This document shows positions 4,155 through 63,736 of a stretch of 64,000 nt of DNA, piece by piece. Origin of the DNA: Phyllobates terribilis (taxonomy: Eukaryota); the NCBI RefSeq assembly GCF_046119375.1, contig NW_027362767.1, positions 284,394,001 through 284,458,000 on the forward strand, in the 5' to 3' direction. The notes beneath the pieces were generated by a model. That model was given only the letters and a program-made list of their open reading frames with translations. It ran no database searches and was not told the DNA's origin. Made by a program: the position numbers and the translations under genes. How positions within the stretch are numbered: position 1 is the first letter of the stretch; each line of letters starts with the position of its first letter.

Positions 4155-4584
4155 CTAATTTCCTAAATGAGTAATGCATGGTCTATCAGTCTCCTTACAT
4201 TGACATCTCAGGCACGTTACGCTCCACGAGGAACAACTTTACCCCTTTGACCTTATTTTAGACAAAATTTTAGTCAAAGTACAATATGCAGATTACACTT
4301 TGAAGGAATATTTTTTATAAAATTTGGCTCTATGTCTTCCACACATCAACCTAACATGTTCCTTGGTCCTTCAATTCTACTGCTGCATCACATATGTACA
4401 AGAGATGACATAAATGTCTATTACATATAGATCCCATCAATACTAATCCTGGTGAATTTGGAACTCCCATTAAAGTGAATAGAGAAATCCATGGAGATGC
4501 AGCCACTTCTGCCTTCACACTGGCTCAAGATGGGGCCCTATTCTCACAATAGGCACATGTCCCTGTGGTGGTGGGACGCACATA

Positions 4585-6213
4585 CAGTACAGACCAAAAG
4601 TTTGGACACCCCTTCTCATTTAAAGATTTTTCTGTATTTTCATGACTATGAAAATTGTACATTCACACTGAAGGCATCAAAACTATGAATTAACACATGT
4701 GGAATTATATACTTAACAAAAAAGTGTGAAACAACTGAAAATATGTCTTATATTCTAGGTTCTTCAAAGTAGCCACCTTTTGATTTGATGACTGCTTTGC
4801 ACACTCTTGGCATTCTCCTGATGAGCTTCAAGAGGTAGTCACCGGAAATGGTCTTCCAACAATCTTGAAGCAGTTCCCAGAGATGCTTAGCACTTGTTGG
4901 CCATTTTGCCTTCACTCTGCGGTCCAGCTCATCCCAAACCATCTCGATTGGGTTCAGGTCTGGTGACTGTGGAGGCCAGGTAATCTGGCGTAGCACCCCA
5001 TCACTCTCCTTCTTGGTCAAATAGTTCTTACACAGCCTGAAGGTGTGTTTGGGGTCATTGTCCTGTTGAAAAATAAATGATGGTCCAACTAAATGCAAAC
5101 CGGATGGAATAGCATGCCGCTGCAAGATGCTGTGGTAGCCATGCTGGTTCAGTATGCCTTCAATTTTGAATAAATCCCCAACAGTGTCCCCAGCAAAGCA
5201 CCCCCACACCATCACACCTCCTCCTCCATGCTTCACGGTGGGAACCAAGCATGTAGTGTCCATCCTTCACCTTTTCTGCATCGCACAAAGACACAGTGGT
5301 TGGAACCAAAGATCTCAAATTTGGACTCATCAGACCAAAGCACAGATTTCCACTGGTCTAATGTCCATTATTTGTGTTCTTTAGCCCAAACAAGTCTCTT
5401 CTGCTTGTTGCCTGTCCTTAGCAGTGGTTTCCTATCAGCTATTTTACCATGAAGGCCTGCTGCACAAAGTCTCCTCTTAACAGTTGTTGAAGAGATGTGT
5501 CTGCTGCTAGAACTCTGTGTGGCATTGACCTGGTCTCTAATCTGAGCTGCTGTTAACCTGTGATTTCTGAGGCAGGTGACTCGGATAAACTTATCCTCAG
5601 AAGCAGAGGTGACTCTTGGTCTTCCTTTCCTGGGGCGGTCCTCATGTGAGCCAGTTTCTTTGTAGCGCTTGATGGTTTTTGCAACTGCACTTGGGGACAC
5701 TTTCAAAGTTTTCCCAATTTTTCGCACTGACTGACCTTCATTTCTTAAAGTAATGATGGCCACTCGTTTTTCTTTACTTAGCTGCTTTTTTCTTGCCATA
5801 ATACAAACTCTAACAGTCTATTCAGTAGGACCATCAGCAGTGTATCCACCCGACTGCTGCACAACACAACTGATGGTCCCAACCCCATTTATAAGGCAAG
5901 AAATCCCACTTATTAAACCTGACAGGGCACACCTGTGAAGTGAAAACCATTTCCGGTGACTACTTCTTGAAGCTCATCAAGAGAATGCCAAGAGTGTGCA
6001 AAGCAGTCATCAAAGCAAAAGGTGGCTACTTTGAAGAACCTAGAATATAAGACATATTTTCAGTTGTTTCACACTTTTTTGTTAAGTATATAATTTCACA
6101 TGTGTTAATTCATAGTTTTGATGCCTTCAATGTGAATGTTCAATTTTCATAGTCATGAAAATACAGAAAAATCTTTAAATGAGAAGGTGTGTCCAAACTT
6201 TTGGTCTGTACTG
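4585..6213 (-). mobile_element. Tc1/mariner transposon, DD38E (Intruder-type), full length, defective
   Basis: TA TSD at 4583-4584 and 6214-6215; ~268-bp TIRs (4585-4852, 5946-6213) beginning CAGTACAGACCAAAAGTTTGGACAC; transposase remnants inside. Confidence 0.95.
4748..5799 (-). pseudogene. DD38E transposase pseudogene
   Basis: Paired-like HTH N-terminus with GRPR linker; [14 protein letters not shown] and PDLNPIE motifs with 38 residues between the second D and E; in-frame TAA at 5368-5370 and a frameshift near 5265. Confidence 0.93.
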
Positions 6214-7050
6214 TATGTCAGACATTTATGTTATATCCTTTATGGTTGTGTTCTAAATGTCAGTACGTATAAAATATCAAAACAAAAAATTGCAAACATA
6301 GCTCTTAACATTAACACAACATAAGACACCTGCTTTCTCCATTCCAGGTTTTCCCAGTAAGAGAAAAGTTGTATTAAAATGTTTTATATGATGTTTTTGG
6401 TCTCCGTGGAGTTCTCAGCATTTTCTTAGGATAGCGAAGGAGTTAACACATCTGTACTGATTTATTTCTTCGGACTCCATGAGGAAGAGAGAATCTTCTC
6501 ACAAGCCAGAGACGCCATGAATCCTATTGAGACTCCGTTCACTTGTCAGTAGACTCCACTAATGAAAATAAACAGATGTGAGCTGGATAGGAAAAAATTG
6601 CAAGTCACCGCCACAGGCTCATCTCAGACACCAACACCTGGATACGACAGTCTTATTGGCTTCACTTGGGACCTACTTTCTGTTCAATCTATTGCTTTTA
6701 GGAGCTTGTCACATTTTGCTCCCATTTCCATCTTATATAAAACACACCTTTTTCTTAGAAGATATACGTTATTGTGCTGGTCATTTTTCTACTGTAATAT
6801 GTATATTATGCATTATTAGACTTGAAGTAGATTCGGGGCCTTCAAGTTTTTAGAGTCATGGATGCATTTTACGTTAAAAACCATTGACATCACAGTCCTA
6901 GTAAACTGTTGTACAGCACCATGACGTAACACATCCACTGTATAATTCATGAAATAGAAAAATATTTGTAGATTGCAATACACAACTAAATGAGTCTATG
7001 AATAACTATGATATTTTCCTACATGGTAAGGTGCTACTAGATGTTCACAG

Positions 7051-16399: not shown

Positions 16400-16543
16400 T
16401 GACAAAAGGGTCATGTGAAATCCTTTGAAAACCATCCTTTGTCCGGCTTTCTTTCTTATTTTAATAAATAAATGAAAAAAAAAGATTTTTCTGGATTTGG
16501 GTTAGGTTGTGCATATATGCATACATGCATGCATTTGCATGTA

Positions 16544-18121
<1,578 letters not shown>

Positions 18122-18591
18122 TATGTGTTGCACAATTAAGGTCTTGGTGCTTTGGTTTTATTGAGCATTTATCATTTCAGTTCAGCTGCCCAATTTTTCA
18201 CTATCATTATATCCATACAATATTATTTAATGGTTGGTGCATTATCAGTCTCATTATTTATTTTTTCATTCATTTATTTTATCTTTTTCATTAATTTTTC
18301 ATCTTTTATTATTTTTGATTTCTAATTATTTTTATTTTTTAATTTAATTTATTTTTCATTATTATTTTTTCAATATATTGGTATATGTACAGGTTCACTA
18401 TTTACATATATATGCAACTGCACTATTACACACTACGCGGCATATGCATGTGTATATTCATGTATGCATATGTATATGCATAATGTTTTGCATGTTAGCA
18501 TCAATCACACCCAATTTTTATTATTTATTTATGTTTTCTCCCATCACACATTCTATATATTTAAGTATATATGTATGTGTATATTTTATAT

Positions 18592-44600: not shown

Positions 44601-44746
44601 CTTATTATTTTTTCCTTTTTCTTTTTTGTGTTTAGTGTTAAAGAAAACATATTAGCTAACACAGAAATAAACTGGGTGTCTTAGTGATAGAACAAGAGGA
44701 GAACTTATCAGTTACAGTTTACATTTTGGGAAAATAATAGTATATA

Positions 44747-46271
44747 CAGTTGTGCTCGAAAGTTTACATACCCCAGCAGAATTTTTCCATTCTTGGCCTT
44801 GTTTCAGAGAATATGAATGATAACAAAAAAACTTTTACTCCATTCATGGTTATTGGTTGGCTGACGTCATTTATTGTCAAACTACTGTGTTTTCTCTTTT
44901 TAAATCTTGATGACAACCAAAAACATCCAAATGACCCTGATCAACAGTTTACATACCCTGGTGATTTTGGCCTGATATAACATGCACAGAATTTGACACA
45001 AATGGGTTTGAATGGTTAGTAAAGGTAACATCCTCACCTGTGACCTGTTTGCTTGTAATCAGTGTGTGTGCATAAAAGCTGAGTGAGTTTCTAGGATCCA
45101 GACAGACTTTTGCATCTTTCATCCAGCCACTGACATTTCTGGATTGTGAGATCTATGGGAAAAGGTAGTTGAACTGTATAACACAGGAAAGAGATACAAA
45201 AAAATCTAAGGAATTGATAATGCCAGTCAGCAGTGTTCAAGCTGTGATTAACAGTCAGGTAGACCAAAAAAATTTCGGCCACAACTGCCAGGAAAATTGT
45301 TCAAGATGCAAAGAAAAACCCACAAATAACATGCACAATAAGGAGGCACTTGAAAAAAAATGGGCTGCATGGTCGAGTCGCCAGAAGAAAGCCATTACTG
45401 CGCAAATGCCACAAAGTATCTTCCCTACAATATGCCAAACAGCACAGAGACAAGCCTCAAAACTTCTGGAACAAGGTAATTTGGAGTGATGAGACCAAAA
45501 TTGAACTTTTTGGCCACAACCATAAACGTTACATTTGGAGAGAGGTCAACAAGGCCTCTGATGAAAGGAATACCATTCCCACAGTAAAGCACGGAGGTGG
45601 ATCGCTGATGTTTTGGGGATGTGTAAGCTACAAACACACAGGAAACTTGGTAAAAGTTGAAGTAAAGATGAATGCAACACATTATAAGCAAATACTGAAG
45701 GCAAATTTGCACTCATCAGCTTGGAAGCTGAGCATGGGACGTACTTGGACATTCCAACATGACAATGATCCAAAACACCAGGCTAAGTTGATCTGTCATT
45801 GGTTACAGCAGAACAAAGTGAAGGCTCTGGAGTGGCCATTTCAGTCTCCTGACCTCAATATCATTGAGCCATCCTGGGAGATCTCAAGCGCGCAGTTCAT
45901 GCTAGACAGCCCAGGAATTTACAGGAACTGGAGGCTTTTTGCCTAGAAGAAAGAGCAGTTTTACCATCTGAGAAAATAAAGAACTTCATCCACAACTACC
46001 ACAAAAAAATTCAAGCTGTCATTGATGTTAGAGGGGGCAATACACAGTATTAAGAACTGGGGTATGTGAACATTTGATCAGGGTCATTTGGATGTTTTTG
46101 GTTGTCAATAAGATTTAAAAATAGAAAACACAGTAGTTTAACAATAAATGGCTTCACCCAACCAATAACCATGAGTGGAGAAAAAGTTTTTTTGTTATCA
46201 TTCATATTCTTTGAAACAAGGCCAAGAAAACAAAAATTCTGCCGGGGTATGTAAACCTTTGAGCACAACTG
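44747..46271 (+). mobile_element. Tc1/mariner DD34E transposon (IR/DR type), defective
   Basis: TA TSD at 44745-44746 and 46272-46273; ~212-bp TIRs beginning CAGTTGTGCTC.AA.GTTTACATACCCC with inner direct repeats. Confidence 0.95.
45150..46053 (+). pseudogene. DD34E transposase pseudogene
   Basis: [22 protein letters not shown]...PDLNIIE (34-residue spacing), terminal GGNTQY*; N-terminal deletions and frameshifts. Confidence 0.9.
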
Positions 46272-48910
46272 TATAAGTGTTGACTTGTGTGACAGGTTTA
46301 GTAATCACTCACTATCAGATTCATAAATCTCCCTCACTATGGATTCTTCAAAAGGAAATTAGAGACTATGATTTATGACGTTTAATTAAAGGACAACGAT
46401 GATGGTTTCTGTCCAGACTTTTGTAACTTCTTATGATTGCTTTATTTGTGAAACGAGGATACCTGAAATAACACAAGCCATTATAGTTCTCTGTGGCTGA
46501 AAGCTAGACAGCCCATTGTCTTGTAATTTGCGGTATAACGAAGTCCATTTAAGCTGCATGTATACACACAATATGCATTATGATGCATTAGATGTAAAGT
46601 ATACTGCTAAAAGGCATGTAAGACACACTAGGCCATCAATATCTCTGGTATCATGCTAATGTGTCATAATGGGTTAAAAGCACTTAAATGACTTAGATCA
46701 GTTAATATTTCACAACTGATATTTGTATATTCCGACATCCATATGGGTCCTTTTTCTAAACAATTATTGTCTTTGGGTCATTAGATGAAACCTCTTATAT
46801 ACACATGGTCAAAGTGGTTTTAATAAGCCGTATAAATAGTCATAAAGCAATTCTACTTTTTTTTTGCAGTTTTCAGCTTGGACTATGAGGGAACAACCAT
46901 TTCATGGATCCATGTTGTACAGATAATAAAAGTGCACCCATGCACCCATAGAGACCCATATACGTACTTCTGTGGGATTTTGATGCTATATCGAGTTACT
47001 GTTTAAGAAATGTGCAAAAGTAAAGTATAGCAACACACAAAGTCAGAAACGTTCCAAATTGTGGCATACTGTTAGACACCGTACAAGGATATTGATGAGA
47101 CCCTGCATTCTCCTTCTAGAAGTAATGCATAAAATTGTATTCCCATCGGCGAAATCCTACCCTAATGTGTAGTAAGTATAATAATAATAATAATATTAGC
47201 AAATACCTACAATTAGAAATGTAGTATAGTTCTTCTGATTTACTGTGTCGCTTACCCCATGTGCAGGGCATTGCGATAACTTAGGTATCCATGGTTACGA
47301 CCACTCAAAGTGACAGCTGTTAATAGTCGTAATAATGGATTCCTAAGCTGCTGCAATGCCCTGCACATTGTATAAGAGACATGGCTAATCAGAACTATGC
47401 TACATTTCAAATTGGAGGTATTTGCTAATATTTTTACTAGGGATGAGTGAACCCATGGAAGTTCGAGTTTATCGGGTTCGACCGAACTTTAGTTTGGGTT
47501 CCAGAACTGTACCTGAACTTGAACCTGAACACGAACCCCATAGAAATCAATGCAGACCCGGACTTTGGAGCAGGAAAAACTCTCTCTCTAATGGGAATAC
47601 CCCTTTAATGAAGACCCCTTACACATAAGCAGAAATAATTTCATACTATGAAACCTTAAAAATTGTGTTATTGCTTGTGATATCACAAACTGAATTTTTC
47701 TAAATTGGGAAATATTGTGGCTCGGAACAACAGCAATCATAATGTAATCCAATGACACTGACTCTTTAATGTGCAGCACTGGTTATTAAAAGTCATATTC
47801 AAAAGTAAAAGAACCAACTTTTGATCATCTTCCTAATTCCATTGCTTTTTCCTATGGCGTGATCTCCAACCTTGACTCTCCGACTGTTGCGTAACAACTC
47901 CCAACATGTTCTGACATCTGCTGTCATAGGTTTATAACAGTTAAGAACTATCTACTGATCTTGATTCTCGTGTTATATTGCCCTTTCCTGTGCCAATTTC
48001 TAATAAGAGGCAACTTAATATCTAGGTGGTATTCATGGTGAACTAATCTTAGAAAAACAATAGTTGGCATTGCTTGTAATCCATCGTACAAAATCTATAA
48101 CTGCTATGCAGGTAAGAACGAGGAGTTCCCCAAAATGTAAATGATCTTTGAAAAATTGGAGTTTTCTCTAACACAAATAGCCGTGCCTTTCTGGATTGCT
48201 TCCTGAAAGATAAATTGCATTGAGTCACTCAGAAGCCGTGCTGTGGGAAACGAGGCCGATGCCGAGAAGTAAACATTTATGTAGGCTGAAATCTTTCATT
48301 ATTCCCTAGCAGAAAGAGATGTAGCAGAACTTGAGCAAGACTGATCATCAGCAGGGTAAAATTTGTAATAAACATCGCAATGGAAGGAGCGGAAAATCTC
48401 TGTCGCAAATGAATAATATAAAAAGATATGAGATTTTCTAGAGTTAGTTCTAATTCTCTATTTGTAGATATAGTAAGAACTTATAAAACGCCCCGTTATT
48501 GTCTCAGCAAACCTGACATTGTTCTAACCGGATGTTATAGGTTTATACATGTGGTGGTTTCTTTAAAATGAATCTGACAGATGATGCATGGCCCCAATCC
48601 ATAGACAATATGTATCAGGCACTGGCTGGATGATCTCAGCCAGGTATGTTTGACTCTGAAATGCTGCGGTGTTTCAGAGAACAACATACTTTAATAGCTA
48701 CTGGGGACTAAACCTTGCTGGAGACTAGTTGGACAGGCGGGTCCTGGGCAGCTTCTCCCCACCTGCTGGCCTGGATACACATGTAGACAGAGAACTTTCA
48801 TCGCACAGAAGACCAGGCGGGAGAAGCCACCGGGGACCGGCCTGTCCAACTATTCTCCAGCTCTTAAAGGAAGAGGAAGCAGTGTGGCACATCTACTGGG
48901 TAAAATGAAC

Positions 48911-49097: not shown

Positions 49098-50672
49098 TTT
49101 TAATTTTACCCAGTGGAAGTGCTGCACTTCTTCTTCTTTCTCTACATGTTTTGCTCTTCTCCACAAGCAGGATTCGGCACCCAACCGCTTTGGCTTTGGT
49201 CCTCTCAGCTCTCTATCGTCAAACAAATGTGGTGAGCTTGAAATTCTTTGCTTCTAGTCTCCAGAGCGGGTCGGTATGTTCTTCTCATGTGGATTGGCAC
49301 ATACTGTCAGGTTCACTTGAAACATCAAGCTCCATAAAATAATCAATACAATAATCACCAAACAATATGTTGAACCTAAGAATAGGTCATTAATATTAAA
49401 GTCCATTAAACACAATAATATCCTCATCTGTGGATCCTGGTACTATCAGTGCCTCTATAAAATATCTATTTTTATTAGGGATCATCATCACATTTAAATG
49501 ATCAGCCAAGACTTTTTTAACAGCGTTTAATTTTTTTTTACTATATTTTCCTGCTTGGTTGACCATCAGGAGTCTATAATACTTCTTAAAACACCCTCTT
49601 GTAAAGGCTTTAACATCCATAACACACAAACAGAAACTGATGTGTATAGCATCAGACCGTAAAACTGCGGCCAAAAAAAACTCCAGCTGGCAATGTCAAC
49701 AGGGCCTGTTGGTGATGCTGATACAGTCATCAAAAGGGTTAAACTGGCAGGAAATTTAGACAGTGAAGGCGGCAGCTTTCAGGAGAAATGTGGAGATTGA
49801 TTGCGCTGACATGAAGAGCAGCTGTGGGTTTGGGACATCGCCCAGTCTCACAATATTTAGCCAATTAACTCAGCGTTAACTGGCCTTGCACTGGCTCTTT
49901 CAGCTTTGCCTTGTAAAGGAATCATCATCTTGTCAGAGAAAGAAAGTCCTGCTAAATAAGGTGTACAATGAAGGGGAAAATTGGAAGCATTAAACATTCT
50001 TATTTGCTGCAAGGTAAGTTAATGCATTTTATTGTCACATGTCCTGAAATTTTAACACTCACATATCTGGTCTGTCCATGTTCTAGATTCATCAAGTTGG
50101 CTGAAATCCCGTTTACACTGGGTATTTGACGTTATGGCTCATTTCTGGACAATAGTTTCTATGATTGCCAATGTAAATTCATAAGAATATAAAATGATAA
50201 AATGATTATCATTCAACACGATTCATGGTGCATATCTACACAAAGTCATCAGTGGCGGCATCGGTTGATGTCACTTATTGCAGCTCTTACAATCTCTTGT
50301 GCATGGCTCTTAGGAGAGTCAGTGCTACTTAATAATTAAAAATGTTCTCTACAATGATTGTAAATTGAAATCTTTTCAAGATTTTTTTACTTAAGGTTTT
50401 GAAACTACGGGGTCTTTGAACCTTTCTAAGAAACTATTTTTTATATCTGATTTCATGGAATTTAGTAGTCTTAAACTCTCCTGAAAAGTCCAATCATTAA
50501 TTTTCTCATCTTATCGCTCAGGCATGCTCAAAGGTATAATTTGAAGTTTCTGAGCCCCAATACATAACCTGAAACAGGACCCCCTTATGACTTTGAACCA
50601 TTTATAATTAGGCACATATTCGTGGCCACAATGTGGGTCATAATTCTACTGGAATTTATTGTCTTTATAATA

Positions 50673-51765
50673 TGTGGTGCCCTGCTGCGCATCGGTGCCA
50701 CAGAACCCAGAAGGGTGCATGGATGGACTTCTCCACAAGAGGCCCTCACACATTCACACACCTCCACCCTACCACCTCAGACCAGCAGAGTGAGCCCATT
50801 AGGGAGATATATAGGGAGGGTGGAACCAGGCAGCTCAGTTTAGTGTTCAGAGACAGAGAGGAACACAGGTCAGAGTTGATCAGAGAGCGTGCTGATGCTC
50901 AGAGAGCAGTGAAGAGCAGCAAGCTGGCTGCAGTGCTTAGGCGAGCCAAGGCCTACAGCACGTGTGAAAGCCTAGTGAGGGCCTTGAGTGGGCCGAAGGC
51001 GAGAGGAGAAAGAAGAAGTAGCAAGGGGGCAGAGGAGCATACCAGGCTCACCCCGATATATATACCGGACACCGGGTCCGCGCCTACAGGGACTCCTTAT
51101 ACCCAGTAGGAACCACCAGAACCCCAGGAGGACTACAGGTCCCAGGTTTGCCAAATGTTGATTACAGTACCAGAGCTAGGAGTCACGGAGGTCCCAGCGT
51201 CCAGGGAGAGTGATCTCCAAAGAGTAGGCCCAACCACCAGGTCAGCAGGTGCAAAGAGAGATAGTAACCAAGCTAGGCCTAGCTCCAGGCAGGTCAGAAG
51301 CTTAGAGAGTAAAGCAACGAATCAGGAGGCCCTATACCCGCTCACTGGGGAGAGTCCAAAAGTGTGCCCTTCACCTGAAGTACCCTGGACCGTGCCTGCA
51401 GCATCACCAGTAAAGGTACTGAAGCTTACCCCTGTGTGAGTGTCTGTCTTTCCTCTGGGACCGTCCTGCCGTCTCTCCCCTGCACCACCATCCAGTATAC
51501 CCCATGCTGCCCTGAGGCCTGCTCCACCTGTGGGGAGCCATTCCATCACAAGCTGCCCTACCATCAGCCTCAGAGGACTGCTCCGCAGCGGCGGCACCCC
51601 TTAGCCGCATTCCACAGGTGGCGTCACGAACTTTCCAAATCCCCTATATAATCCCCCTTTTACTGACCGCCCTGGGTCACGGACCGAGCCAGCCACCGTG
51701 ATATTCCCTATACCGGCATCCAGAGGCCCGGCTGCCGAGTACCCCATGGCCCAGGGGGCGCGTCA
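50673..51765 (+). repeat. Element A 5' LTR
   Basis: TGTGG...GCGCGTCA; TATATA at 50808; AGTAAA at 51409; roughly 95% identical to the 3' LTR (estimated from the first ~165 bp). Confidence 0.95.
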
Positions 51766-51769
51766 GCTT

Positions 51770-51789
51770 TGGCGTCACGAACAGGATTC
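51770..51789 (+). promoter_or_regulatory. Primer-binding site, tRNA-Ser(CGA)
   Basis: TGGCGTCACGAACAGGATTC is complementary to the 3' end of the vertebrate tRNA-Ser(CGA) isodecoder (...GAATCCTGTTCGTGACG-CCA; tRNA sequence recalled, not looked up). Confidence 0.85.
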
Positions 51790-52157
51790 CGTGCCCGTTG
51801 CCACCGGGTACTGTGCGTCTTAAGAGACTGTGATACTCACTGAGGTGAAGTTTTCCCGCCATTCCCGAGATTTCCTGCCATTGTCCCCCATCTTCCTGTC
51901 GCCGTGCGGGAAGAAGAGGGGCGTAACCGTGGGAATCGGAGAGGCGTAACCGCTGGAAGCGCACGAAGTTGAGGACACGCCCCGCCCCTGACGTCGAACC
52001 AGGAAACGTCAGTTCCTGGAAGGAGCCAGAGGACGCTCTGATGTCAGACGCAAGCGACGCAAGGTCCTGGAAGAAGACCGTCGCCCGCGGAGCTGCGGCC
52101 TACCTGGTAAAGATAGTGAAGAAGGAAGGCTCCGGTTCACTAGAGGGGAGCAACAAT

Positions 52158-53254
52158 GGCCGACGACCAGCAAGCCGCCGGAGCATCGGTTAACGCAACT
52201 GATGCCGAACCTGTGCCCGGCGCTGCACAGGCCGGAGCGGCCACTCCACCAACAGGGGTCATGACCCCGTTATAACCTATGGCCCTGCCGTATATCCCTG
52301 TAGCGAAGTGGCTCCCCCAGTATAACGGCAAACCGAACACCCTGTCCGGATTCAAGAGAAGAAATGCGGTGTGCTAGACATGTATTCTATGACCGGTAAA
52401 CAGAGAGCCGCTGTTGTGCTGGGACAATTGACTGGTGCCGCAAAGCGGGAAGTTGAAACCTGGCCAGCTGCAGACCAGGAATCAGTATCCATCATCTTTA
52501 AGAGACTGCAGACTGTGTTTGAAAACCGCACCGAGACGGATCTCCCGAAGAGGTTCTACCACTGTTATGAACTGCTACAAACACTAAGGAAAGATAGGAA
52601 AACTGTCCCTACAATAGGACTAAGCTGATTCCCTATGATGCAGCGGGGGACCTGTTCCTTGTGAACAGACCCGCCTAAGTCCTCGGCTAGTCTGAACGCA
52701 GACCTATAGATATAAGGGAGGGGTCCCTACAAGAACTAGGGACTGGGATATAGTTGGACACCTCCTAGCAGAAATTGTAGCAGAGCAAAGACAAACAAAC
52801 AAACAGAAGTACTAGTGGTCAAAAGACCAAGCAAACTACAAAGTTAGGTACAAGGCACCTGGCTAGCTTAAGAGTAAAAGTAACACTGAAGTCCAGCAAG
52901 GCCAGGAGGGCGGAGCTGGATTATATAGGCAAAAAGTCAAGTGACCTGCAAAATAGAAAAAACTAACAGGAGGGTACTAACAACCACTGTGTCCAGAAAA
53001 CTGAGGACAGTATCCGGGACTACGCCTGGCATTTACAAGAGGCACTGCGGGCCCTGAAACAGGTTAGTCCAGCCAGCATACAAGATGAAAATAAAATGCT
53101 GACGGAACAGTTCATCCGGGGGTTAAGGTCCCAGGAGGAGAGCAGAACTGTACGGTGGTGGGCCTTAGATCATCCAGATGCCACCTTTGACACCCTTAAG
53201 GACATGGCTATAAAGGGTCTGCAGCCCCTGGAACCATCAGATACTGCTGTCTGA
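52158..53254 (+). pseudogene. Gypsy gag (capsid region), disrupted
   Basis: LPYIP..WLPQY.G...VVLGQLTGAAKREV...RFYHC|VQKTEDSIRDYA...EQFIRGL; split by a nested solo LTR; no CCHC knuckle seen. Confidence 0.8.
52563..52982 (-). mobile_element. Nested solo LTR (420 bp) inside gag
   Basis: TGTTA...TAACA termini; 5-bp TSD ACCAC (52558-52562, 52983-52987); removing it restores the gag frame FYHCVQKTEDSIRDY; minus-strand CCTATATAA. Confidence 0.9.
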
Positions 53255-53259
53255 GTCCT

Positions 53260-56200
53260 TAACCTCACCAGATGAAGTGGAGGATAATGACCCGGGAACC
53301 CAGGTGGAGGATTGGTGTCAACAGCTCCATGTTGGGACAGACACCACTCCTGCCCATCAGAAACAGGGTGTACACCGGTTGGTTCAGGAATACGAGCGGG
53401 TATTCAGTAAACACTGACTTGATTTCAGGAGGATTAAAGGGGTACAACACTATATACCCACAGGTGACCACCCACCCATCAAAGAATGTTACAGGCCAAT
53501 CCCACCAGCACACTACCAGAAAGCGAAGGAAATGTTGCATGACATGAGGAAGGCAGGGGTAATAAGAGATAGCTGTAGCCCCTGGGCAGCTTCCCTGGTG
53601 CTAGTCAGGAAAAAGGATGGAAGCATGAGAATGTGTGTAGATTACAGACAAGTAAATCGCATAACACACAAAGATGCATTCCCTTTGCCCTGTATAGAGG
53701 AATCCCTGGCTGCATTAAAGTCTGCAAATTACTTCTCCACCCTTGACCTCACTAGTGCGTACTGGCAAGTCGCTGTTGCTGAGGAGGATCGGGAGAAGAC
53801 GGCCTTTACTACCCCGATGGGACTCTGCGAGTTCAACAGTATGCCGTTCAGACTCTGCAACGCCCCCGGAACGTTCCAGAGATTAATGGCGTGCTGCCTG
53901 GGACATCGAAACTTCGAGACTGTACTGCTATACCTGGATGACATGATAGTGTACTCCAAAACGTACCATGACGATTTGAAGCACCTGGCAGAGGTATTTG
54001 AGTCTCTGTCCCGGTGTGGGATGAAGCTGAAGCCCTCCAAGTGCCACCTGCTCAAGCGAAATGTACAGTACCTGGGGCACATCGTCAGTCCAGAAGGAGT
54101 AGCACCGTACCCGGAGAAGGTCACTGCCATCCAGAAATGGCCGGAGCCGAAGAGCCTCAAGGAGGTACGTCAGTTCCTGGGACTAGTCAGGTATTACCAG
54201 AGGTTTGTGAAGGACTACACCAAGAAAGCGGCACCTTTGCAAGATCTCCTGGTAGGACAGTCCGGGAAAGGCAGAAACCCCCCGTTCCAGTGGGGTAAGG
54301 AGCAAGCTGAATCCTTTGAGGTGATGAAGGAGATCCTGACCGGCAAAGAGATCCTAGCCTACCCTGACTACAGCCAACTGTTCCTGCTGTACACTAATGC
54401 CAGCAACGAGGGATTAGGAGCTGTGTTAATTCAGAAGCAGAATGGCCGAGAGAAGGTGATCGCCTATGCAAGCAGGAAGCTCTGCCCGACCGAGAGGAAC
54501 CCGGAGAACTATAGCAGCTTCAAGTTGGAGTTCCTAGCCCTGGTCTGGGCCTTCACCGAGCGGTTCAAGCACTACCTAGCCTCCAGTAAGTTCACTGCCT
54601 ACACTGATAATAACCCCTTGACTTATCTGGAAACAGCCAAGTTAGGAGCCATGGAACAATGAAGGATGGCTCGGCGGTCAAACTACCAGTTCACCATTAA
54701 GTACCGGGCAGGCGGTAAGAATGCCAACGCCGATGCCCTGTCCAGGATGCCGCACAATTCGGATACTGAAGAAGTGGATGACCTGGAGGAGATTGAGCTA
54801 CCTGCCTTCCACCGTAATGGAATGGTCCACGAGCAACGAGCCTCCTGGAGGCATCGCGGTATGACGTTAAACCCTTTGCCTCACCACAGCTGGAAGGAGA
54901 CCCAGGACAGCGACCCGGTTGTCAGCCATATCAAAGAATTGATAACCCAGGAAGGTTCCTCCCTGGAGAAGGACGCGTCTCCACAAGCCAAGTAACTGTG
55001 GAATGAGAGAAGCCGGCTGTTCATCTATAGGGAGAAGCTGTGCTGAAGGTACGTCAACCCGAGGACCCATGAGATGGTATGGCAGATCGTAGTGCCTAGG
55101 ACGGACATCCAGATGGTGTTGGAGGCCTACCACGATCAAGCAGGGCACTTTGGCTGGAAAAAGCTAGAAACCCTCCTGAAGAGTCGGTTTTACTGGGTTG
55201 GAATGCGGAGTTCCAAAGAGAGATGGTGCCGGGATTGTGGACCCTGTAGCCTCAGAAGAAAGGACTACGGCTGCCAGGAGGCACCCCTGCAGTCCATCAA
55301 GACAACCCAGCCCCTGGAGATCGTCGCTCTAGACCACGTCAAGCTGTCACCCAGCAGGTCAGGCTACTCGTATGCCCTGACCATGGTGGATCACAACTCC
55401 CGGTTCCTGGTGGTAGCCCCCGTCAAGGATCTGACGGCAGAAACTGCAGCAAGGACGTTTCAAGCCTACTTCTGCAGGCCCCATGGATACCGGGATGAGG
55501 TGCTGACGGACGAAGGCCCTGCCTTTGAAGCCGAATTATTCAAGGAGTTCTGCCATCTGTACGGGTGTAAGAAAATCCGGACTACACCGTACCACCCCCA
55601 AACCAATGGGTTATGTGAAAAGATGAATAACATCGTCATCGACCTGTTGAAGACCTTACCACTAGAAGAAAGAAACCAGTGGCCAGACAAGCTATCTGAT
55701 CTGGTAGATCTGTACAACCACATACCTGTGAGTTCCACCAATTGTACTCCAGCATATCTCATGTGAGCAAGACCCAGAAAGTTGCCCATGGACCTGGAGC
55801 TTGGTGTAGTAGAACCCGAAGCAGATATGTCCACTGAAGGCTGGGACATGACGCGACAGGAACAGTACAGGAGAGTACAAGCCTGTGTCGAAGACAGTTT
55901 GAATAGGGTAAGAGACAAGCAGGAAGCACAGTACAACAAGAGTGCACCAGCAGAACCCTTTTCACCTGGAGAAGTTGTGCTAAAGAGAAAAAGAAGAAAC
56001 CACAAACTTGATGACCAGTGTGAGAGGGAACCCTACACTGTGTTAAATTCAAGATTTGATAACAGGAAGGCCTGTTTAATTACCAAGGACGGAGGAAGAA
56101 CGACTGCAACAGTATCTAGAAACCATCTGAAGTTGTGTCCAGGTCTGCTAAAGCCCCAGGAAGAAGTGCCTCTCATCGTACCGGAGGAGCCTAAAAAAGC

Positions 56201-56573
56201 AGTAATACATACTGAATTAGGAGATTTCCCGGCAGATTGGCCCCAACTAGGAGGAGCAGTGATAATACCTGTGATCCACTTCTACCAACAGCCAGAAGAC
56301 CCTCCACAGCAAGTAGAACCTCTAGGTGCCCCAGAAGAGCCTGCTCAGGAACAATCCCCGGAAGAAGGATCACCAGTAGAAGCAGAGCAAGAAAGCCCAG
56401 CCAATGGTACACTTGCCAGTCCCGTATGGAGGTTAAGACAGTCTTGCAGTCCCTCCACACCTAGAACTGACAGAATGGGAGGTAGTACAAACACCAGTAC
56501 CACACGCATCCCAGTACTACGTAGGTCAACACGTAGCACGCAAGGTCAGACCCCTGTCAGATACAGAGAGTAG
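53260..56573 (+). pseudogene. Gypsy pol: RT, RNase H, integrase
   Basis: CVDYR, LDLTSAYWQ, YLDD; TNAS (catalytic D>N), NYSSFKLE, TDNNPL; HHCC zinc finger, LDHV / TDEG / GLCEKMN; all four ORF pieces share one frame and are broken only by stops; no protease motif found. Confidence 0.95.
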
Positions 56574-57150
56574 AAAGAGAAACTCTGATAGTATAAATAG
56601 TTGCCCCTTGGGGTATGTTATTCTTGTGTAATTTTCATGTATGTATTGACTTATTTTTGCCTTACAATGGACAATTTAGGTGACATGGACACTTTTCTTG
56701 TTGCATTTAGTTACCCGTAAGGGTATATATAAAGGATTCGGTGGCTGAGGACTGTGTGCAGCCCAAAAACTGTTTACTTGTACATAATTGCACTCCCTGG
56801 AGTGCCCCTTTTAGGTAACCACTGAACAAAAACCTGTTTAGCGTGGCGGAAGACGTGGTCCAACTCCGGATCACCTATGCCCTGCAGCCACGCCAAGGGC
56901 CTACGTGGAGGGTTTACGGACAGGTCCCTCAAGCTCCCTTGTACTTTGCAGTGAAATGGACACCCTGTTAGGGGACTCCCTGACAATTGCTCAAAAACTC
57001 TAACTATTGTACATATATTTATTATTTATTACGTTTTTGTTACCTGTAATGTTCAAGCAAAGTGCCTCCCATAAAGGGAAGAAAAGTTGTTATTGTTAAC
57101 GAACCTGTTTTTGAGAAAAATGCTTCAGTTCAGGAGTACTGAGTTTTACT

Positions 57151-57158
57151 AGGGGGAA
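57151..57158 (+). promoter_or_regulatory. Polypurine tract of element A
   Basis: AGGGGGAA directly before the 3' LTR TG. Confidence 0.85.
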
Positions 57159-58251
57159 TGTGGCGCCCTGCTGCGCATCGATGCCACAGAACCCAGAAGG
57201 GTGCATGGATGGACTTCTCCACAAGAGGCCTTCACACATTCACACACCTCCACCCTACCACCTCAGACCAGCAGAGGGAGCTTGTTAGGGAGATATATAG
57301 GGAGGGTGGAGCCAGGCAGCTCAGTTTAGTGTTCAGAGACAGAGAGGAACACAGCTCAGAGTTGAGCAGAGAGTGTGCTGACGCTCAGAGAGCAGTGAAG
57401 AGCAGCAAGCTGGCTGCAGTGCTTAGGCGAGCCAAGGCCTACAGCACGTGTGAAAGCCTAGTGAGGGCCTTGAGTGGGCCGAAGGCGAGAGGAGAAAGAA
57501 GAAGTAGCAAGGGGGCAGAGGAGCATACCAGGCTCACCCCGATATATATACCGGACACCGGGTCCGCGCCTACAGGGACTCCTTATACCCAGTAGGAACC
57601 ACCGGAACCCCTGGAGGACTACAGGTCCCATGTTTGCCAAACGCTGATTACAGTACCAGGGCTAGGAGTCACGGAAGTCCCAGCGTCCAGGGAGAGTGAT
57701 CTCCAAAGAGAAGGCCCTACCACAAGGTCAGCAGGTGCAAAGAGAGACAGTAACCAAGCTAGGCCTAGCTCCAGGCAGGTCAGAAGCTTAGAGAGTAAAG
57801 CAACGAATCAGGAGGCCCTATACCCGCTCACTGGGGAGAGTCCAAAAGTGTGCCCTTCACCTGGAGTACCCTGGACCGTGCCTGCAGCATCACCAGTAAA
57901 GGTACTGAAGCTTACCCCCGTGTGAGTGTCCGTCTTTCCTCCGGGACCGTCCTGCCGTCTCTCCCCTGCACCACCATCCAGTATACCCTACGCTGCCCTG
58001 AGGCCCGCTCCACCTGTGGGGAGCCATTCCATCACAAGCTGCCCTACCATCTGCCTCAGAGGACTGCTCCGCAGCGGCGGCACCCCTTAGCCGCATTCCA
58101 CAGGTGGTGTCACAAACTTTCCAAATCCCCTATATAATCCCCCTTTTACTGACCGCCCTGGGTCATGGACCGGGCCAGCCACCGTGATATCCCCTATACC
58201 GGCAACGAGAGGCCCGGCTGCCGAGTACCCCACAGCCCAGGGGGCGCGTCA
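57159..58251 (+). repeat. Element A 3' LTR
   Basis: Direct repeat of 50673-51765, same length. Confidence 0.95.
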
Positions 58252-59017
58252 CATACACTCATTTATAACCATCACATATACTGTTGCTACAAACAGCTTT
58301 GTAACTTAAAAAAAATAAAATAGTTTTGATGGACCTTATGCCTGTGTAACACTTGCATTACCATCTAGTTCCCTCAGCTAATAAAAGGTAGAAGAGTAAA
58401 CTTTGCGTTTGCTGTGATCAAACATGTAAAATCTGTCTGAGACAACCAGCTTAGGAAGGCTGCCTTGGTTGGATAGACTTGGCCTTAGCCACTCTATCTA
58501 CCAGTTCGCAGAGAAACTCTGGCATTTACTCTCTAAACCCTGCACAGGGACTTAGTGCTGAGTTTCCTGGGTTGCAACCACAAGAGTGACTGCTGGATGG
58601 AGGAGTGATCCCGAGACAAGAGTAATCTTCTTTGCCAAGTCAGTAATTGGAAGGACAAACTTGGGATAGAATCAGGAGACAAAATTATAGTCAATAAAAT
58701 AGCTTCGTTCAGATACCAGGTGATCAGTCAAAGCATAATTAGAAAGGCCAAGGTCAGGGTCAGGGGGCATCATAGAGGCAGGCGTAGTCAGACTACAAGC
58801 CAGGTTAAGATCTGGATACACAAAACAAAAAAAAAACAAGAGTCCAGAGGGTAATTAAGGAATAATAACTGGCAACTCACAGCTTGAAGCCTAACCGGGT
58901 ATGGTGCTGCCTCATTGACCACAGCAAGGAGCAGATGATTCCTGCTGAGTTGCTGGACAGGAATAATTAGCCTGGCTAGGTGGCACCGCAGGTTCCAGAC
59001 ATACTAATATATGTATG

Positions 59018-60080
59018 TGTGGCACCCCAGGGGTCTGGTTTCCACAGTAACAGCAATGTTATGTCTGAGAGCAGGTGGGAGGTCTCTTGGTCAGGAATCC
59101 TATGCATGCCACACCTCCTGCCCAGTCCTGGGAGGGGAAGAACTTCCCCTATATAAACCTGGGGCTGAGGCAGGGTTAGAGAGTTCAGAGGGAGAGTGCA
59201 GCCAGGAGGGCTGACAGGGAGCTGTGGCTCCGGCTGGGCCCAGCTCCTGGGCCATGCCAGAAGTAGAGAAGAGAAGCAGCATAGGAAGAAACAACAGGAG
59301 CTCTGTGGGAGCAGTGCTACAAGGAGTCAGGGGCTGGCAGTGCAGAGCTCGCCCTGACTGAGAAGATTTCTTACCGGACCCGGAGTCCGAGGCTGTGGGG
59401 ACTAACTCCTACCCAGCAGCAGAATCCGTCAGGCAGGGGATTTCAGGTCCTCTGGCCAAGAAACCCGAAGGCACGGTCACACGCATGGGACCAGCACCGC
59501 CGTCATGGAGCGGAAGCTACTAGAAGGCCCCGAGTCACCGGCCATACAGGTGAGCACCACACGGTACACTCAGGGACGTGGGCTACTTATACCCGCCTCT
59601 AGCAAGGTAGCCAGAAGAGTACAGTCAGTTTGGGAGGCCTACAACTCCGCCTGGCCAGGGGAGATCCCATCTGCTCAAGGACTGACCAGGCCCCGATCGC
59701 TAGCCAGTACTCCGGGAGGGTCTATCTTTGTCACCAGTAAAGACCCTGAATCACACCGCATCGTCTCTGAGTGATTCCTGCTACCCCCATCATCCACGTC
59801 GGCTGCCCTGAGGCCATACCCCTCCCGTTGGGGGTTATACCATCTACGCTGCACTATCCTACCACCGGCCTCAGCGGTCTGCCCTGCAGCGGCAGCTCCA
59901 TAGCTGCATTCAACAGGTGGCGTAGTCGTTCCAACATCTACCGCTGATACAGCGCCACTTAGTCTGACTCCCTGGGCACGGACCGGATCACCGCCATGAG
60001 ATTACAACCCTCAACAGATCCGGCTCCGGGTAAGCTCCCGCGTGCGCAACGCTGCGCGACACAGGCCCAGGGGCGCGTCA
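59018..60080 (+). repeat. Element B 5' LTR
   Basis: TGTGGCACCCC...GGGCGCGTCA; TATATAAA at 59150; AGTAAA at 59736. Confidence 0.95.
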
Positions 60081-60085
60081 ACTTT

Positions 60086-60104
60086 TGGCGTAGTCGGCAG
60101 GATT
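60086..60104 (+). promoter_or_regulatory. Primer-binding site, tRNA-Ser(AGA/TGA)
   Basis: TGGCGTAGTCGGCAGGATT is complementary to ...AATCCTGCCGACTACG-CCA (tRNA sequence recalled, not looked up). Confidence 0.88.
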
Positions 60105-60470
60105 TCGTGCCCGCAACCACCGGGTACTGCGTGCCTGAAAAAGACTGTTCAAACTTACCAGTGGTGAAGATTCCCGCCATCCGGCGCCATCTTCTGCCTT
60201 CTTCCCGCCATCCGTGGAGTTTTCCCGCCGTTGGACGCCATCTTGAAGACGCCGCGCGGGAAGAAGAGGGGCGTGGACTCCGAAAGCGCGCGAGAACTGA
60301 AGCCCCGCCTCACGTCCGGACGTTGCGTAAGGTCCTGGAAGGAGCCCAGCAGACGCCGACGTCACAGGAACGCGACGGAAGGTCCTCAACCCTGACGATC
60401 CACTGCGGAGCCGCGGCCTACGGAAGAGGATCATCGCAAGGTAGGCCACGGTCCACTAGGGGGGAGAAGG

Positions 60471-60872
60471 ATGTCGGATACGGAGGAGAGCTTCACCGCT
60501 TCAACCCCCGCCAGCGCCACCGCTGTTGCGGTCATGCCTTTCACCATGCCCTATATCCCGGGGGCAGCCTGGCTACCCCAGTACTCAGGGGAGTCACATA
60601 CCCTGCATGACTTTAGAGAAAAGCTGGATAGCCTCTTCCAGGTGTACCCCCTCACAGAGGAGCAAAAAGTGAGCATCCTGGTGGCCCAATTAACCGGGGC
60701 AGCCCAAAGGGAGGTAAAGTCCTGGCCACCTGGGAGGAGGACTGTCGCAGAGATACTAACCCAGCTAACCGAGGAAGAGCTGCAGTACTACCAATACGAG
60801 GAAAGCCAAGAGGACCCGGATGGGTCTGAGGACTACCCTCAGGAGGGAGCACAAAGAGGACATAGCTACTGA
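60471..60872 (+). CDS. Truncated Gag-derived ORF with acidic tail (133 aa)
   Basis: MPYIPGAAWLPQYSG...ILVAQLTGAAQREVKSWP aligns to element A gag (LPYIPVAKWLPQYNG...VVLGQLTGAAKREVETWP); open frame ending EEELQYYQYEESQEDPDGSEDY. Confidence 0.65.
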   Translation: MSDTEESFTASTPASATAVAVMPFTMPYIPGAAWLPQYSGESHTLHDFREKLDSLFQVYPLTEEQKVSILVAQLTGAAQREVKSWPPGRRTVAEILTQLTEEELQYYQYEESQEDPDGSEDYPQEGAQRGHSY

Positions 60873-61000
60873 AGGGAAGTAGCGTGAATAAAGAGCTGTA
60901 AATAGTTACCCGTAAGGGTACAAGGACTGCTGCTAATTAAAATATGGTCCCCGTTGGGATTAGTGAATTGTTCCCCATGTGCCCCTATCTTAAACCAGCT

Positions 61001-61100
61001 TGAGGACTGTGAGCAGCCATTCCTTATCCCCACAGGCTGAGGACAGTGAGCAGCCGTTCCTTATCCCCACTGGCCGAGGACTGAGAGCGGCCATATCCTG
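61001..61100 (+). repeat. 37-bp tandem repeat, three copies, in the element B 3'UTR
   Basis: (T/C)GAGGAC(T/A)G(T/A)GAGC(A/G)GCC units start at 61001, 61038 and 61075. Confidence 0.85.
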
Positions 61101-61407
61101 TAAATAATTATGTGTTTCTAGTAATTTATGGGAGTCTTTGGTGGATTTACCGGGAATCCTTTGTACATGGTTGGAGCGTAACCCAGGAATGGACTAAAGA
61201 CTGTTAAGGACTCGGGGCAGGACAGACCCCTACCTGGTTACGTCTCCCTGTTTTGGTGAAATGGACACCTTACTTTTCTTCAAAGACTGCACCCGGTTGC
61301 GGACACGCCGTAACCATCTTTATGTGTTTTTCTTATTGTATTATTATTGTTTATACCTTGTTATGTTTTTCTAAAAATATGTTTAGTCCCGGAGTACTAA
61401 ATTTCAC

Positions 61408-61417
61408 TAGGGGGGAA
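61408..61417 (+). promoter_or_regulatory. Polypurine tract of element B
   Basis: TAGGGGGGAA directly before the 3' LTR. Confidence 0.85.
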
Positions 61418-62481
61418 TGTGGCACCCCAGGGGTCTGGTTTCCACAGTAACAGCAATGTTATGTCTGAGAGCAGGTGGGAGGTCTCTTGGTCAGGAATCC
61501 TATGCATGCCACACCTCCTGCCCAGTCCTGGGAGGGGAAGAACTTCCCCTATATAAACCTGGGGCTGAGGCAGGGTTAGAGAGTTCAGAGGGAGAGTGCA
61601 GCCAGGAGGGCTGACAGGGAGCTGTGGCTCCGGCTGGGCCCAGCTCCTGGGCCATGCCAGAAGTAGAGAAGAGAAGCAGCATAGGAAGAAACAACAGGAG
61701 CTCTGTGGGAGCAGTGCTACAAGGAGTCAGGGGCTGGCAACTGCAGAGCTCGCCCTGACTGAGAAGATTTCTTACCGGACCCGGAGTCCGAGGCTGTGGG
61801 GACTAACTCCTACCCAGCAGCAGAATCCGTCAGGCAGGGGATTTCAGGTCCTCTGGCCAAGAAACCCGAAGGCACGGTCACACGCATGGGACCAGCACCG
61901 CCGTCATGGAGCGGAAGCTACTAGAAGGCCCCGAGTCACCGGCCATACGGGTGAGCACCACACGGTACACTCAGGGACGTGGGCTACTTATACCCGCCTC
62001 TAGCAAGGTAGCCAGAAGAGTACAGTCAGTTTGGGAGGCCTACAACTCCGCCTGGCCAGGGGAGATCCCATCTGCTCAAGGACTGACCAGGCCCCGATCG
62101 CTAGCCAGTACTCCAGGAGGGTCTATCTTTGTCACCAGTAAAGACCCTGAATCACACCGCATCGTCTCTGAGTGATTCCTGCTACCCCCATCATCCACGT
62201 CGGCTGCCCTGAGGCCATACCCCTCCCGTTGGGGGTTATACCATCTACGCTGCACTATCCTACCACCGGCCTCAGCGGTCTGCCCTGCAGCGGCAGCTCC
62301 ATAGCTGCATTCAACGGGTGGCGTAGTCGTTCCAACATCTACCGCTGATACAGCGCCACTTAGTCTGACTCCCTGGGCACGGACCGGATCACCGCCACGA
62401 GACTACAACCCTCAACAGATCCGGCTCCGGGTAAGCTCCCGCGTGCGCAACGCTGCGCGACACAGGCCCAGGGGCGCGTCA
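61418..62481 (+). repeat. Element B 3' LTR
   Basis: About 99.3% identical to 59018-60080 by manual comparison. Confidence 0.95.
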
Positions 62482-63303
62482 TATGTACTGCGTCTGCACC
62501 ACCCAGAAATACTCCCCATGATGTCTCCTCCATCACCAGCGCTGCTAGTAGAGCAAATACTGCAGCACCTGGTGACATAAGTAGACCACTGAAGCAGGTC
62601 TAGGTAGAGATGTAAAAAAATGCATGTAGTTCTCCTGCCAATAGTAGTCTTTAAACCACCAAAAAGCCGAAGCTTGGGTCCTATCTTTTACATTAAATCA
62701 GATAGAAAATAAACCACAATATAGATCAGGGGTATTGATTATTATATTTAAAAATAAGGATTTAAAAATCCTTAAACTCTATTACCTCAGCTTACTAGGT
62801 CTCTTTGTAGACAGTTTTAAAGGGATTATCTAGGATGATAAAAATTGTTTAATTAATTTACATTTTCAAAGCATCCAAACAATATTTTTTGTCACCAGAT
62901 AACCCCTTTAACTTGTTATATTAACACCATTGCAGTTTAAAAATAGCCCTCACAATGCCAACCTAAGTAATACCAACAAAAACAACTTTATACGTATAAA
63001 TGTCCAAACTCTCTGCCTGAAATGGAAAAATCCCTTTATATGAAGCTACTTAGAGTCCTATAAAGTAGGATATACAGTAAATATGAAATAAAAGTGACCT
63101 TCTCCTGCTCATACACTTTAAAGGACAGTCACTGTCATGCAAAGATTAAATTTCAGAAGGACTGGCCAACAATCTTATGGGGCATCCCAATACTACCATA
63201 AGAGCAGTTGTTAGGGGAAAGAGGGGTGAAGTATGTTGTTCTGTAGGGCTGTTGTGTTACACTGTCAGACCCTTACACATTCTAACCATATACAGTGGTT
63301 TTA

Positions 63304-63736
63304 ATTAGCGATGGGAAAACAGATTGCAGGACTCTGGTTCAATGGCCGGGTCAGTGATCTGTAACTCCTGGACTGGAGACCTGTGATCTTCATACTCCTG
63401 GACGGGAGGCCTGTGAATCTCCATACTCCTGGACGGAAGGCCTGTGAATATCCATACTCCTGGACGGAAGGCCTGTGAATCTCCATACTCCTGGACGGGA
63501 GGCTTGTGACTCTCCTTACCTCCCTGTATTCCCGGCTCCTCTTTTGATTAGCTGGGCTGGTGTGATGTCATCATTGGAGCATGATACACTCATGACATCG
63601 CATCAGCCCAGCTAATCCAAAGATGAGTCGGTAATAGCGGAAGTTAAGGAGAGCCACAGGCCCCCAGTCAAGGGGGTACAGATTGCTGACCTGGCCAATA
63701 GACCGGAGTCCTGTGAATTGATTCTCCCAACTCTAG
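63304..63736. mobile_element. hAT-type MITE with an internal 31-bp tandem array
   Basis: Imperfect inverted arms (CAGGACTCTGGTTCAATGGCCGGGTCAG / CTGACCTGGCCAATAGACCGGAGTCCTG); ~5 copies of ATACTCCTGGACGG(A/G)AGGCCTGTGAATCTCC at 63361-63520. Confidence 0.7.

Follow-up and report, generated by a model that had tools for sequence, protein, structure and literature searches.

A U5 module of Gypsy-type LTR elements in Phyllobates terribilis that may clasp the two acceptor-stem strands of the primer tRNA

The window analyzed here, a stretch of 64,000 nt from Phyllobates terribilis (GCF_046119375.1, NW_027362767.1:284,394,001-284,458,000, forward strand), contains two neighbouring Gypsy-type LTR elements, A and B, whose features all lie on the forward strand. 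Element B shows the features expected of Ty3/Gypsy elements, namely a 4-bp target site duplication and TG..CA LTRs of 1063 bp (59018-60080 and 61418-62481, 99.3% identical), a TATA-like box in the 5' LTR (59150-59155), a true 18-nt primer binding site (PBS) complementary to tRNA-Ser(AGA/TGA) (60086-60103) and a polypurine tract just before the 3' LTR (61409-61417). B itself has no pol and carries a short gag-like frame (60396-60872) without a Pfam match, which is 75% identical to the gag of a B-type copy bearing reverse transcriptase. The Ty3/Gypsy order of reverse transcriptase, RNase H and integrase is found in the B-type copy L130 and in element A, where it is broken by stops. The true PBS of A (51770-51787) is complementary to tRNA-Ser(CGA), and tRNA genes for both primers are present in the genome (L044, L359-L361). 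The gag of A is split at ~52600-52965 by an unrelated repeat, and a like sequence is found upstream in L204.

The 11-mer that opens the PBS of B (60086-60096) occurs again within both of its LTRs, at 59918-59928 and at 62319-62329, each time ending 152 nt before the LTR end. Positions and distance are as the original prediction had given them, and its assignment of the primer to tRNA-Ser(AGA/TGA) is supported by such tRNA genes of the same genome, which match the PBS (L359-L361). With up to one mismatch the 11-mer has three matches in the window compared with 0.22 expected, and none of 100 shuffles reaches three. As the LTRs are 99.3% identical, the copies in the 5' and 3' LTR have to be counted as one datum, not as two. 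According to duplex computation, the 11 nt cover the CCA end, the discriminator base and the 7-nt 3' strand of the acceptor stem. Element A has its own internal copy at the homologous place, a 13-nt match to its tRNA-Ser(CGA) PBS at 51619-51631 (3' LTR copy at 58105-58117, with two transitions). A conserved AGTAAA at 59736-59741, which lies 140-260 nt upstream of the internal PBS copy (iPBS) in 86 of 87 copies, is a putative poly(A) signal and suggests that the iPBS and its surroundings belong to U5. Contigs of four runs (two studies) over 58900-60500 showed no substitution within 59918-59928 among 40 of 64 listed, and one contig in this comparison is without base 59928. Family B was also found in a second organism (runs X5-X8).

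The original prediction was right about the motif but missed an abutting helix and a box complementary to the tRNA 5' end. RNAalifold, applied to 38 diverse copies, recovered unprompted a 7-bp long-range helix that ends at the base directly 5' of the iPBS, and left both iPBS and box unpaired. In B the strands of this helix are 59824-59830 and 59911-59917 (62225-62231 and 62312-62318 in the 3' LTR), with one mismatch in the 5' LTR copy; in A the helix spans 51527-51618, with strands at 51527-51533 and 51612-51618. Altogether 96.9% of the helix cells are paired, and three of the seven pairs change on both sides in a compensatory manner. The helix is flush with the iPBS in 84 of 88 copies, compared with 0-1 of 88 at offsets of -3 to -12 and 1 of 88 before the true PBS.

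The box is complementary to tRNA nt 1-11 and lies ~65-75 nt downstream of the iPBS in the loop of a conserved stem. In B it is found at 59993-60005 (62394-62406 in the 3' LTR), its match to tRNA-Ser nt 1-11 containing a bulge of 2 nt, and the stem extends over 59978-60028 (arms ~59978-59985 and ~60020-60028; helix 8, 89% of cells paired). The box of A, complementary to the 5' end of tRNA-Ser(CGA), is at 51692-51701 (58178-58187 in the 3' LTR). The family's own tRNA 5' end is favoured in 15 of 16 A-type and 66 of 71 B-type copies, and the box score lies above nearly all shuffles in 64 of the 88 copies. Three further covarying helices are located upstream of the iPBS. The region 59800-59917 (columns 30-153 of alignment A1), between the putative poly(A) signal and the iPBS, is multi-helical and apparently pseudoknotted, with many compensatory changes, and has no match in Rfam. 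Single-sequence folding, by a method without pseudoknots, gave unpaired probabilities of 0.24 (B) and 0.30 (A) for the iPBS and probabilities of 0.23 (B) and 0.02 (A) for the flush helix. An outer U5 stem as drawn was poorly supported (39.5% and 69.5%), and a fixed tRNA-length spacing was rejected, since the span varies between families.

The two PBS 18-mers of A and B type occur 81,569 times genome-wide. The copy sample consisted of the first 90 of 100 listed places out of these 81,569, chosen on the PBS alone. An internal copy was present at the homologous U5 site in 88 of the 90, and without exception its tRNA-Ser type agreed with that of the PBS; it is not special to element B. The two copies without the site have truncated LTRs. 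The copy's own PBS 11-mer was matched with at most one mismatch in 83 of the 90 (A 13/17, B 70/73) compared with 2 of 1800 shuffles, and the 11-mer of the other type, at the same threshold, in none of the 90. An A-type iPBS before a B-type PBS, the only direction of this pairing that was searched, was found at one place genome-wide, a recombinant. Over the 88 copies the match extends over positions 1-13 in the A type and 1-11 in the B type, with losses mainly at CpG, and positions 15-16 match in 0 of 71 B copies. Identity over the 300 nt upstream of the PBS ranges from 56% to 100%, with a median of 74%, and past the motif the bases of different families cannot be aligned. In one A-type copy (L177) the iPBS lies just 38 nt before the PBS, a U5 deletion having taken out the box. 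Among 30 loci of other Ser-PBS families, two were A-type bodies and four were not PBS sites, and on inspection the remaining 24 had no internal copy within 230 nt; a pattern search downstream of the LTR end of A and B for one more tRNA-Ser PBS gave no match.

This survey of 90 PBS-selected places bears out a conserved motif that varies together with the primer tRNA and appears to be under selection. Conservation among closely related B copies, which had been put forward as a check, was also found: in copies picked for their similarity there was one departure in 317 motif cells versus 22 in 1046 linker cells. The motif is indeed retained in the young, non-autonomous element B, but such retention is weak evidence when taken alone. 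To call B an independent second observation was an overstatement, because A and B have homologous U5 regions (66% identity); the evidence is instead the concerted switch. On a tree of 330 nt of upstream sequence (motifs excluded, 42 rows, L177 left out) the A/B type changes four times, three of these changes being forced, and the three to four switches may reflect LTR recombination. A tree of the downstream stems (motifs excluded, 35 rows, L177, L163, L047 and L043 left out) shows two A/B changes, and one origin is not rejected (p-AU 0.18). Independent tRNA switches are few, probably two.

Elements with a tRNA-Leu PBS (4,461 places), several of which have integrase before reverse transcriptase (Gmr1 order), carry a similar arrangement. 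Among the 30 loci read, which include two copies of one tandem array (15 further copies of it were left out), 19 have a 9-11-nt internal copy and 11 have none. A box matching the tRNA-Leu 5' end precedes the iPBS by 40-70 nt, at a long distance from the true PBS, in 16 of the 19, and there is a flush helix of at least 6 bp in 17 of the 19; such helices also occur at some non-iPBS anchors in the Leu loci. Metagenome contigs with the same PBS comprise at least 115 stretches with 110 usable hits. Among the matches listed, 44 of the 110 look like LTR ends, in 22 clusters, of which four contain an internal copy of 10-12 nt that in each case abuts a helix of 6-8 bp; the gag of these lineages is just 24-26% identical to that of the B type. 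The other 18 of the 22 clusters among these matches have no internal copy, including ones with a closer gag. Because of this patchy distribution (absent from 18 of the 22 metagenome lineages listed and from 11 of 30 Leu loci), the module is not needed for Gypsy replication in general.

The two acceptor strands of a tRNA are complementary to each other, and iPBS and box can therefore also pair mutually. Element B alone cannot separate tRNA pairing from self-pairing, because the acceptor stem of its tRNA is without wobble. In A-type elements, position 11 of the iPBS is A in 32 of 32 copies, which fits U66 of the tRNA and mismatches the C of the box. Of 16 good boxes in Leu elements, 15 have A opposite U3 of the tRNA and none has G, and position 7 of the iPBS is C, opposite G70, in 18 of 19. 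These positions show that both motifs track the strands of the tRNA and not each other. Pointing the other way, folding of single sequences predicts a mostly paired iPBS and a weak flush helix, and the B-type linkers contain a stretch able to pair with the iPBS.

The notion of a dual PBS, if it is taken to mean two priming sites, did not hold up: the would-be priming records number three, compared with 81,569 PBS sites, and an LTR ending at the iPBS was not demonstrated. In detail, the iPBS context followed by a full 18-mer is found at three places genome-wide, one in-register conversion and two U5 deletions. In the conversion (L101/L130), the iPBS of the 5' LTR was replaced in register by the tRNA 18-mer and the 3' LTR is unconverted and of full length, which fits rare priming at the iPBS. 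Five places have a U5 break at the site; small internal deletions account for four of these, and at none was an integrated end demonstrated. A functional PBS marks where the LTR ends and is renewed by copying 18 nt of the tRNA; neither was found to hold for the iPBS. Host tRNA primes at the terminal PBS, as 19 of 20 loci read are element ends at which the tRNA was copied past nt 18. The 20 loci (L031-L050) had been matched with a tRNA-Ser T-loop pattern, and in the 19 the PBS is extended as a tRNA copy by up to ~55 nt, which is a fossil read-through of the A58 stop; in L034 and L046 the tRNA copy is followed by an inverted copy of the element's own U5. All ten copies with a PBS from another tRNA-Ser, scattered single copies of which none was seen amplified, keep the A-type iPBS and box, and therefore the primer rewrites the PBS but not the iPBS.

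Traces of mis-directed strand transfer are found as well. Two full PBS lie 100-200 nt apart at 91 places, 88 of which were judged by eye to be a PBS plus post-iPBS U5. Twenty-five such places were read. Comparison with the place's own LTR was possible in 23, of which 11 join in register 18-19 of the iPBS; the other 12 have no exact 12-mer for placing the junction. An LTR end followed by native iPBS and repeated U5 was seen in nine of 30 places read (out of 50). In the two clearest mixed cases (L404 and L406) the extra piece comes from the strong-stop DNA of a second family and the leader agrees with the upstream LTR, consistent with the plus strand having jumped to another strong-stop DNA in the same particle. 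These two and L129/L136 are chimeras between subfamilies and A/B types, suggesting co-packaged heterologous RNAs. Transfer errors linked to the iPBS concern ~0.1% of elements. The predicted duplex energies in B are -20 kcal/mol for the iPBS and -36 kcal/mol for the true PBS. Since the error-causing site was kept while bases that would raise the error rate were lost, selection would seem to act on a short, weak site, and the sequence pattern argues for an iPBS under selection.

The reading we favour, with a probability of roughly 0.5, is that the three-part module of iPBS, flush helix and box grips the primer tRNA by both strands of the acceptor stem, normally without starting DNA synthesis; that some tRNA binds to the iPBS at all seems quite probable. 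A more specific version, which is possible but can be offered only tentatively, is a T-box-like U5 clamp in several Gypsy lineages that would unzip the acceptor stem, select uncharged, priming-competent tRNA by stacking its free CCA end on a helix, and hand it to the PBS. In the favoured reading itself, the CCA end of the tRNA would likewise stack on the flush helix, and reverse transcriptase would be blocked at the iPBS, where the template base that follows is already in a pair. Once opened, the tRNA could shift its 3' end onto the PBS of 18 nt (from -20 to -36 kcal/mol by prediction in B), its 5' end staying on the box. As an alternative to this hand-off, the tRNA might bridge the two packaged RNAs. 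In this way the module would catch the right primer, open it in advance and bind each family to a single tRNA. With regard to its origin, we tentatively suggest an old duplication of LTR end and PBS that was trimmed by selection.

Other explanations have to be weighed against this. The iPBS might serve as an intramolecular guard or switch. It would pair with the box or the linker, which by their design can pair with the PBS too, so that the true PBS stays open for the incoming tRNA, and the iPBS itself would never bind a tRNA. Predicted energies allow for this (iPBS:box -10.6 kcal/mol in A and -12.0 in B; iPBS:linker -12.9 in B, where ensemble folding pairs the two at 0.46), and the linkers of most B-type families, at 59950-59958 in element B, carry a partial complement of the iPBS (median -12.9 kcal/mol). 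The A-type linkers, however, are without such a complement (-3.4), the A-type match extends two bases into the T stem, and at the G·U positions of the tRNA iPBS and box mismatch each other although each fits the tRNA (32/32; 15/16; 18/19). We therefore regard a guard as unlikely; it may rather describe the tRNA-free state of the module, for which a folded form is plausible. Next to no credence is left for the idea that the opposite strand mimics a tRNA, with two acceptor strands and CCA ~85 nt apart, and encodes its own primer: the distance from the iPBS to the end of the box is 83-88 nt in the window, near the length of tRNA-Ser, but the span varies among families, the order of the parts is reversed in Leu elements, neither ARAGORN nor Rfam finds a tRNA, and the read-through copies come from host tRNA. 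Splice-donor and transcription-factor readings were dropped, as they leave the co-variation with the tRNA unexplained, and a decoy for 3' tRNA fragments was judged unlikely, the internal copy being without the bases that presumably pair with the fragment seed.

A role at the DNA level, in strand transfer, where the helix pauses minus-strand synthesis at the iPBS and the iPBS is a back-up landing pad for the plus-strand PBS tail, would account for the 91 double-PBS places, the 11 of 23 in-register junctions and the nine of 30 repeated U5 pieces. It is nevertheless distinctly improbable, because these are aberrant products in ~0.1% of elements, the extra piece from a second family in L404 and L406 points to an error, positions 12-18, which would help transfer, have been lost, and the box stays unexplained. 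That both sites routinely start minus-strand DNA is very improbable. Priming in Drosophila Gypsy needs no more than 11 nt (PMC1635307), the converted 5' LTR of L101/L130 is what rare priming would leave, and products without an integrase end would be under-counted; but the three places stand against 81,569, the five U5 breaks comprise four small deletions and no demonstrated integrated end, and the helix is flush with the site. Hardly any probability attaches to the reading, already largely refuted, that a PBS was once duplicated and left a neutral remnant, which tRNA copies overwrite now and then and so keep in step with the PBS. A CA does precede the iPBS by 4-5 nt, like the CA of a true LTR end, PBS duplications do arise and overwriting was seen once (L130). 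Overwriting would, however, copy 18 nt whereas positions 15-16 match in 0 of 71 copies, its rate is ~1 in 10^5, it can write neither box nor helix, the motif was kept while its flanks became unalignable, and the ten mis-primed copies were not overwritten.

In FIV, the tRNA's 5' end pairs with a loop of U5. According to PMC3185550 and PMC11181671, extended U5-tRNA contacts fix primer choice in HIV-1, HIV-2, ASLV and FIV; the box in its U5 stem loop resembles these contacts, none of which, among those compared there, pairs the CCA end at a second site. In Drosophila Gypsy (mdg4), a second 11-nt site for tRNA-Lys2 binds the tRNA without priming, and the tRNA can bridge two RNA pieces (PMC1635307). 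The iPBS of B would likewise be a second tRNA site of 11 nt in a Gypsy element, but that of mdg4 lies near the RNA 3' end and binds the anticodon and T stems, whereas the present one lies in U5, matches the same 3' acceptor end as the PBS and abuts a helix. The bipartite PBS of Ty3 and Ty1 consists of parts that bind different tRNA segments and together make up one PBS (PMC5371799); the template likewise contacts the tRNA outside the PBS and the tRNA is opened on the element RNA (here proposed), but here the PBS is a full 18 nt and the 3'-end site is duplicated. Of the features of a multipartite PBS, the box (tRNA nt 1-11) provides an additional template site that matches the tRNA away from its 3' end. 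The parts do not match separate tRNA segments, since the iPBS overlaps the PBS target, and the second part would not be at the RNA 3' end as in Ty3 and Gypsy, since the iPBS lies downstream of the AGTAAA. The module is best read as acting in the manner of the multipartite contacts that Ty1, Ty3, Drosophila Gypsy and retroviruses make with their tRNA, and as breaking the pattern by duplicating the 3'-end site (PMC5371799, PMC1635307, PMC3185550).

A tRNA-Lys3-like sequence in U3-R of HIV-1 (Piekna-Przybylska 2010) aids the first strand transfer (cited in PMC6468702). It is likewise a tRNA-complementary motif embedded in the LTR; the present module, however, lies downstream of the putative poly(A) signal. 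In the T-box riboswitch, UGGN pairs with the NCCA end of the tRNA beside a helix on which the tRNA end stacks (PMC7583486). A UGGN site flush with a helix is also seen here, in sequence geometry alone and as an analogy only; the T-box is bacterial, forms 4 bp and needs a stem that reads the anticodon, whereas 10-13 bp that would unzip the acceptor stem are proposed here. A T-box covariance model gave no match, and an Rfam scan of 50600-62600 gave only two chance hits. Helenus TRIMs also have tRNA-related sequence inside animal LTRs, a Pol III promoter relic which has no PBS complementarity (PMC10886601); in contrast, two short primer-tied motifs without a tRNA fold are found here. Identity with a Helenus-type TRIM was rejected in view of the 1063-bp LTR, the lack of a tRNA by ARAGORN or Rfam and a motif that equals the PBS start. 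No description of the module was found in the literature searched, outside of subscription journals and Repbase Reports.

What is known of how LTR elements select and open one tRNA, and of the reasons for which they seldom switch primers, comes mostly from HIV, MLV and yeast Ty. The module is compact, exists in natural compensatory variants for three tRNAs and tens of thousands of copies, and its error products are recorded in the genome. It offers a ready small in vitro system for tRNA capture, hand-off and the sensing of uncharged ends. If true, the T-box-like clamp would be an RNA-encoded step of primer selection and loading ahead of reverse transcription, locking families to one tRNA. The internal copy can mislead the annotation of PBS and LTR boundaries, and it would be a second target for 3' tRNA fragments.

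Some further repeats were observed. Leu-primed elements of Gmr1 order (L141, L147, L148, L200) have tandem 52-53-nt repeats of LTR end, PBS and leader start, and such repeats are frequent, with up to four or more copies. At G000:C1 ~19.88-19.97 Mb (L113-L128) a tandem array of Leu-PBS elements has a period of ~4.2 kb and more than 20 units. Within the window, long inverted-repeat pairs 1.1-1.5 kb apart at 4580-6218, 16542-18123 and 44743-46275 are probably DNA transposons, and a 31-bp tandem repeat beside a 92-nt palindrome at 63386-63673 is probably a MITE-like repeat.
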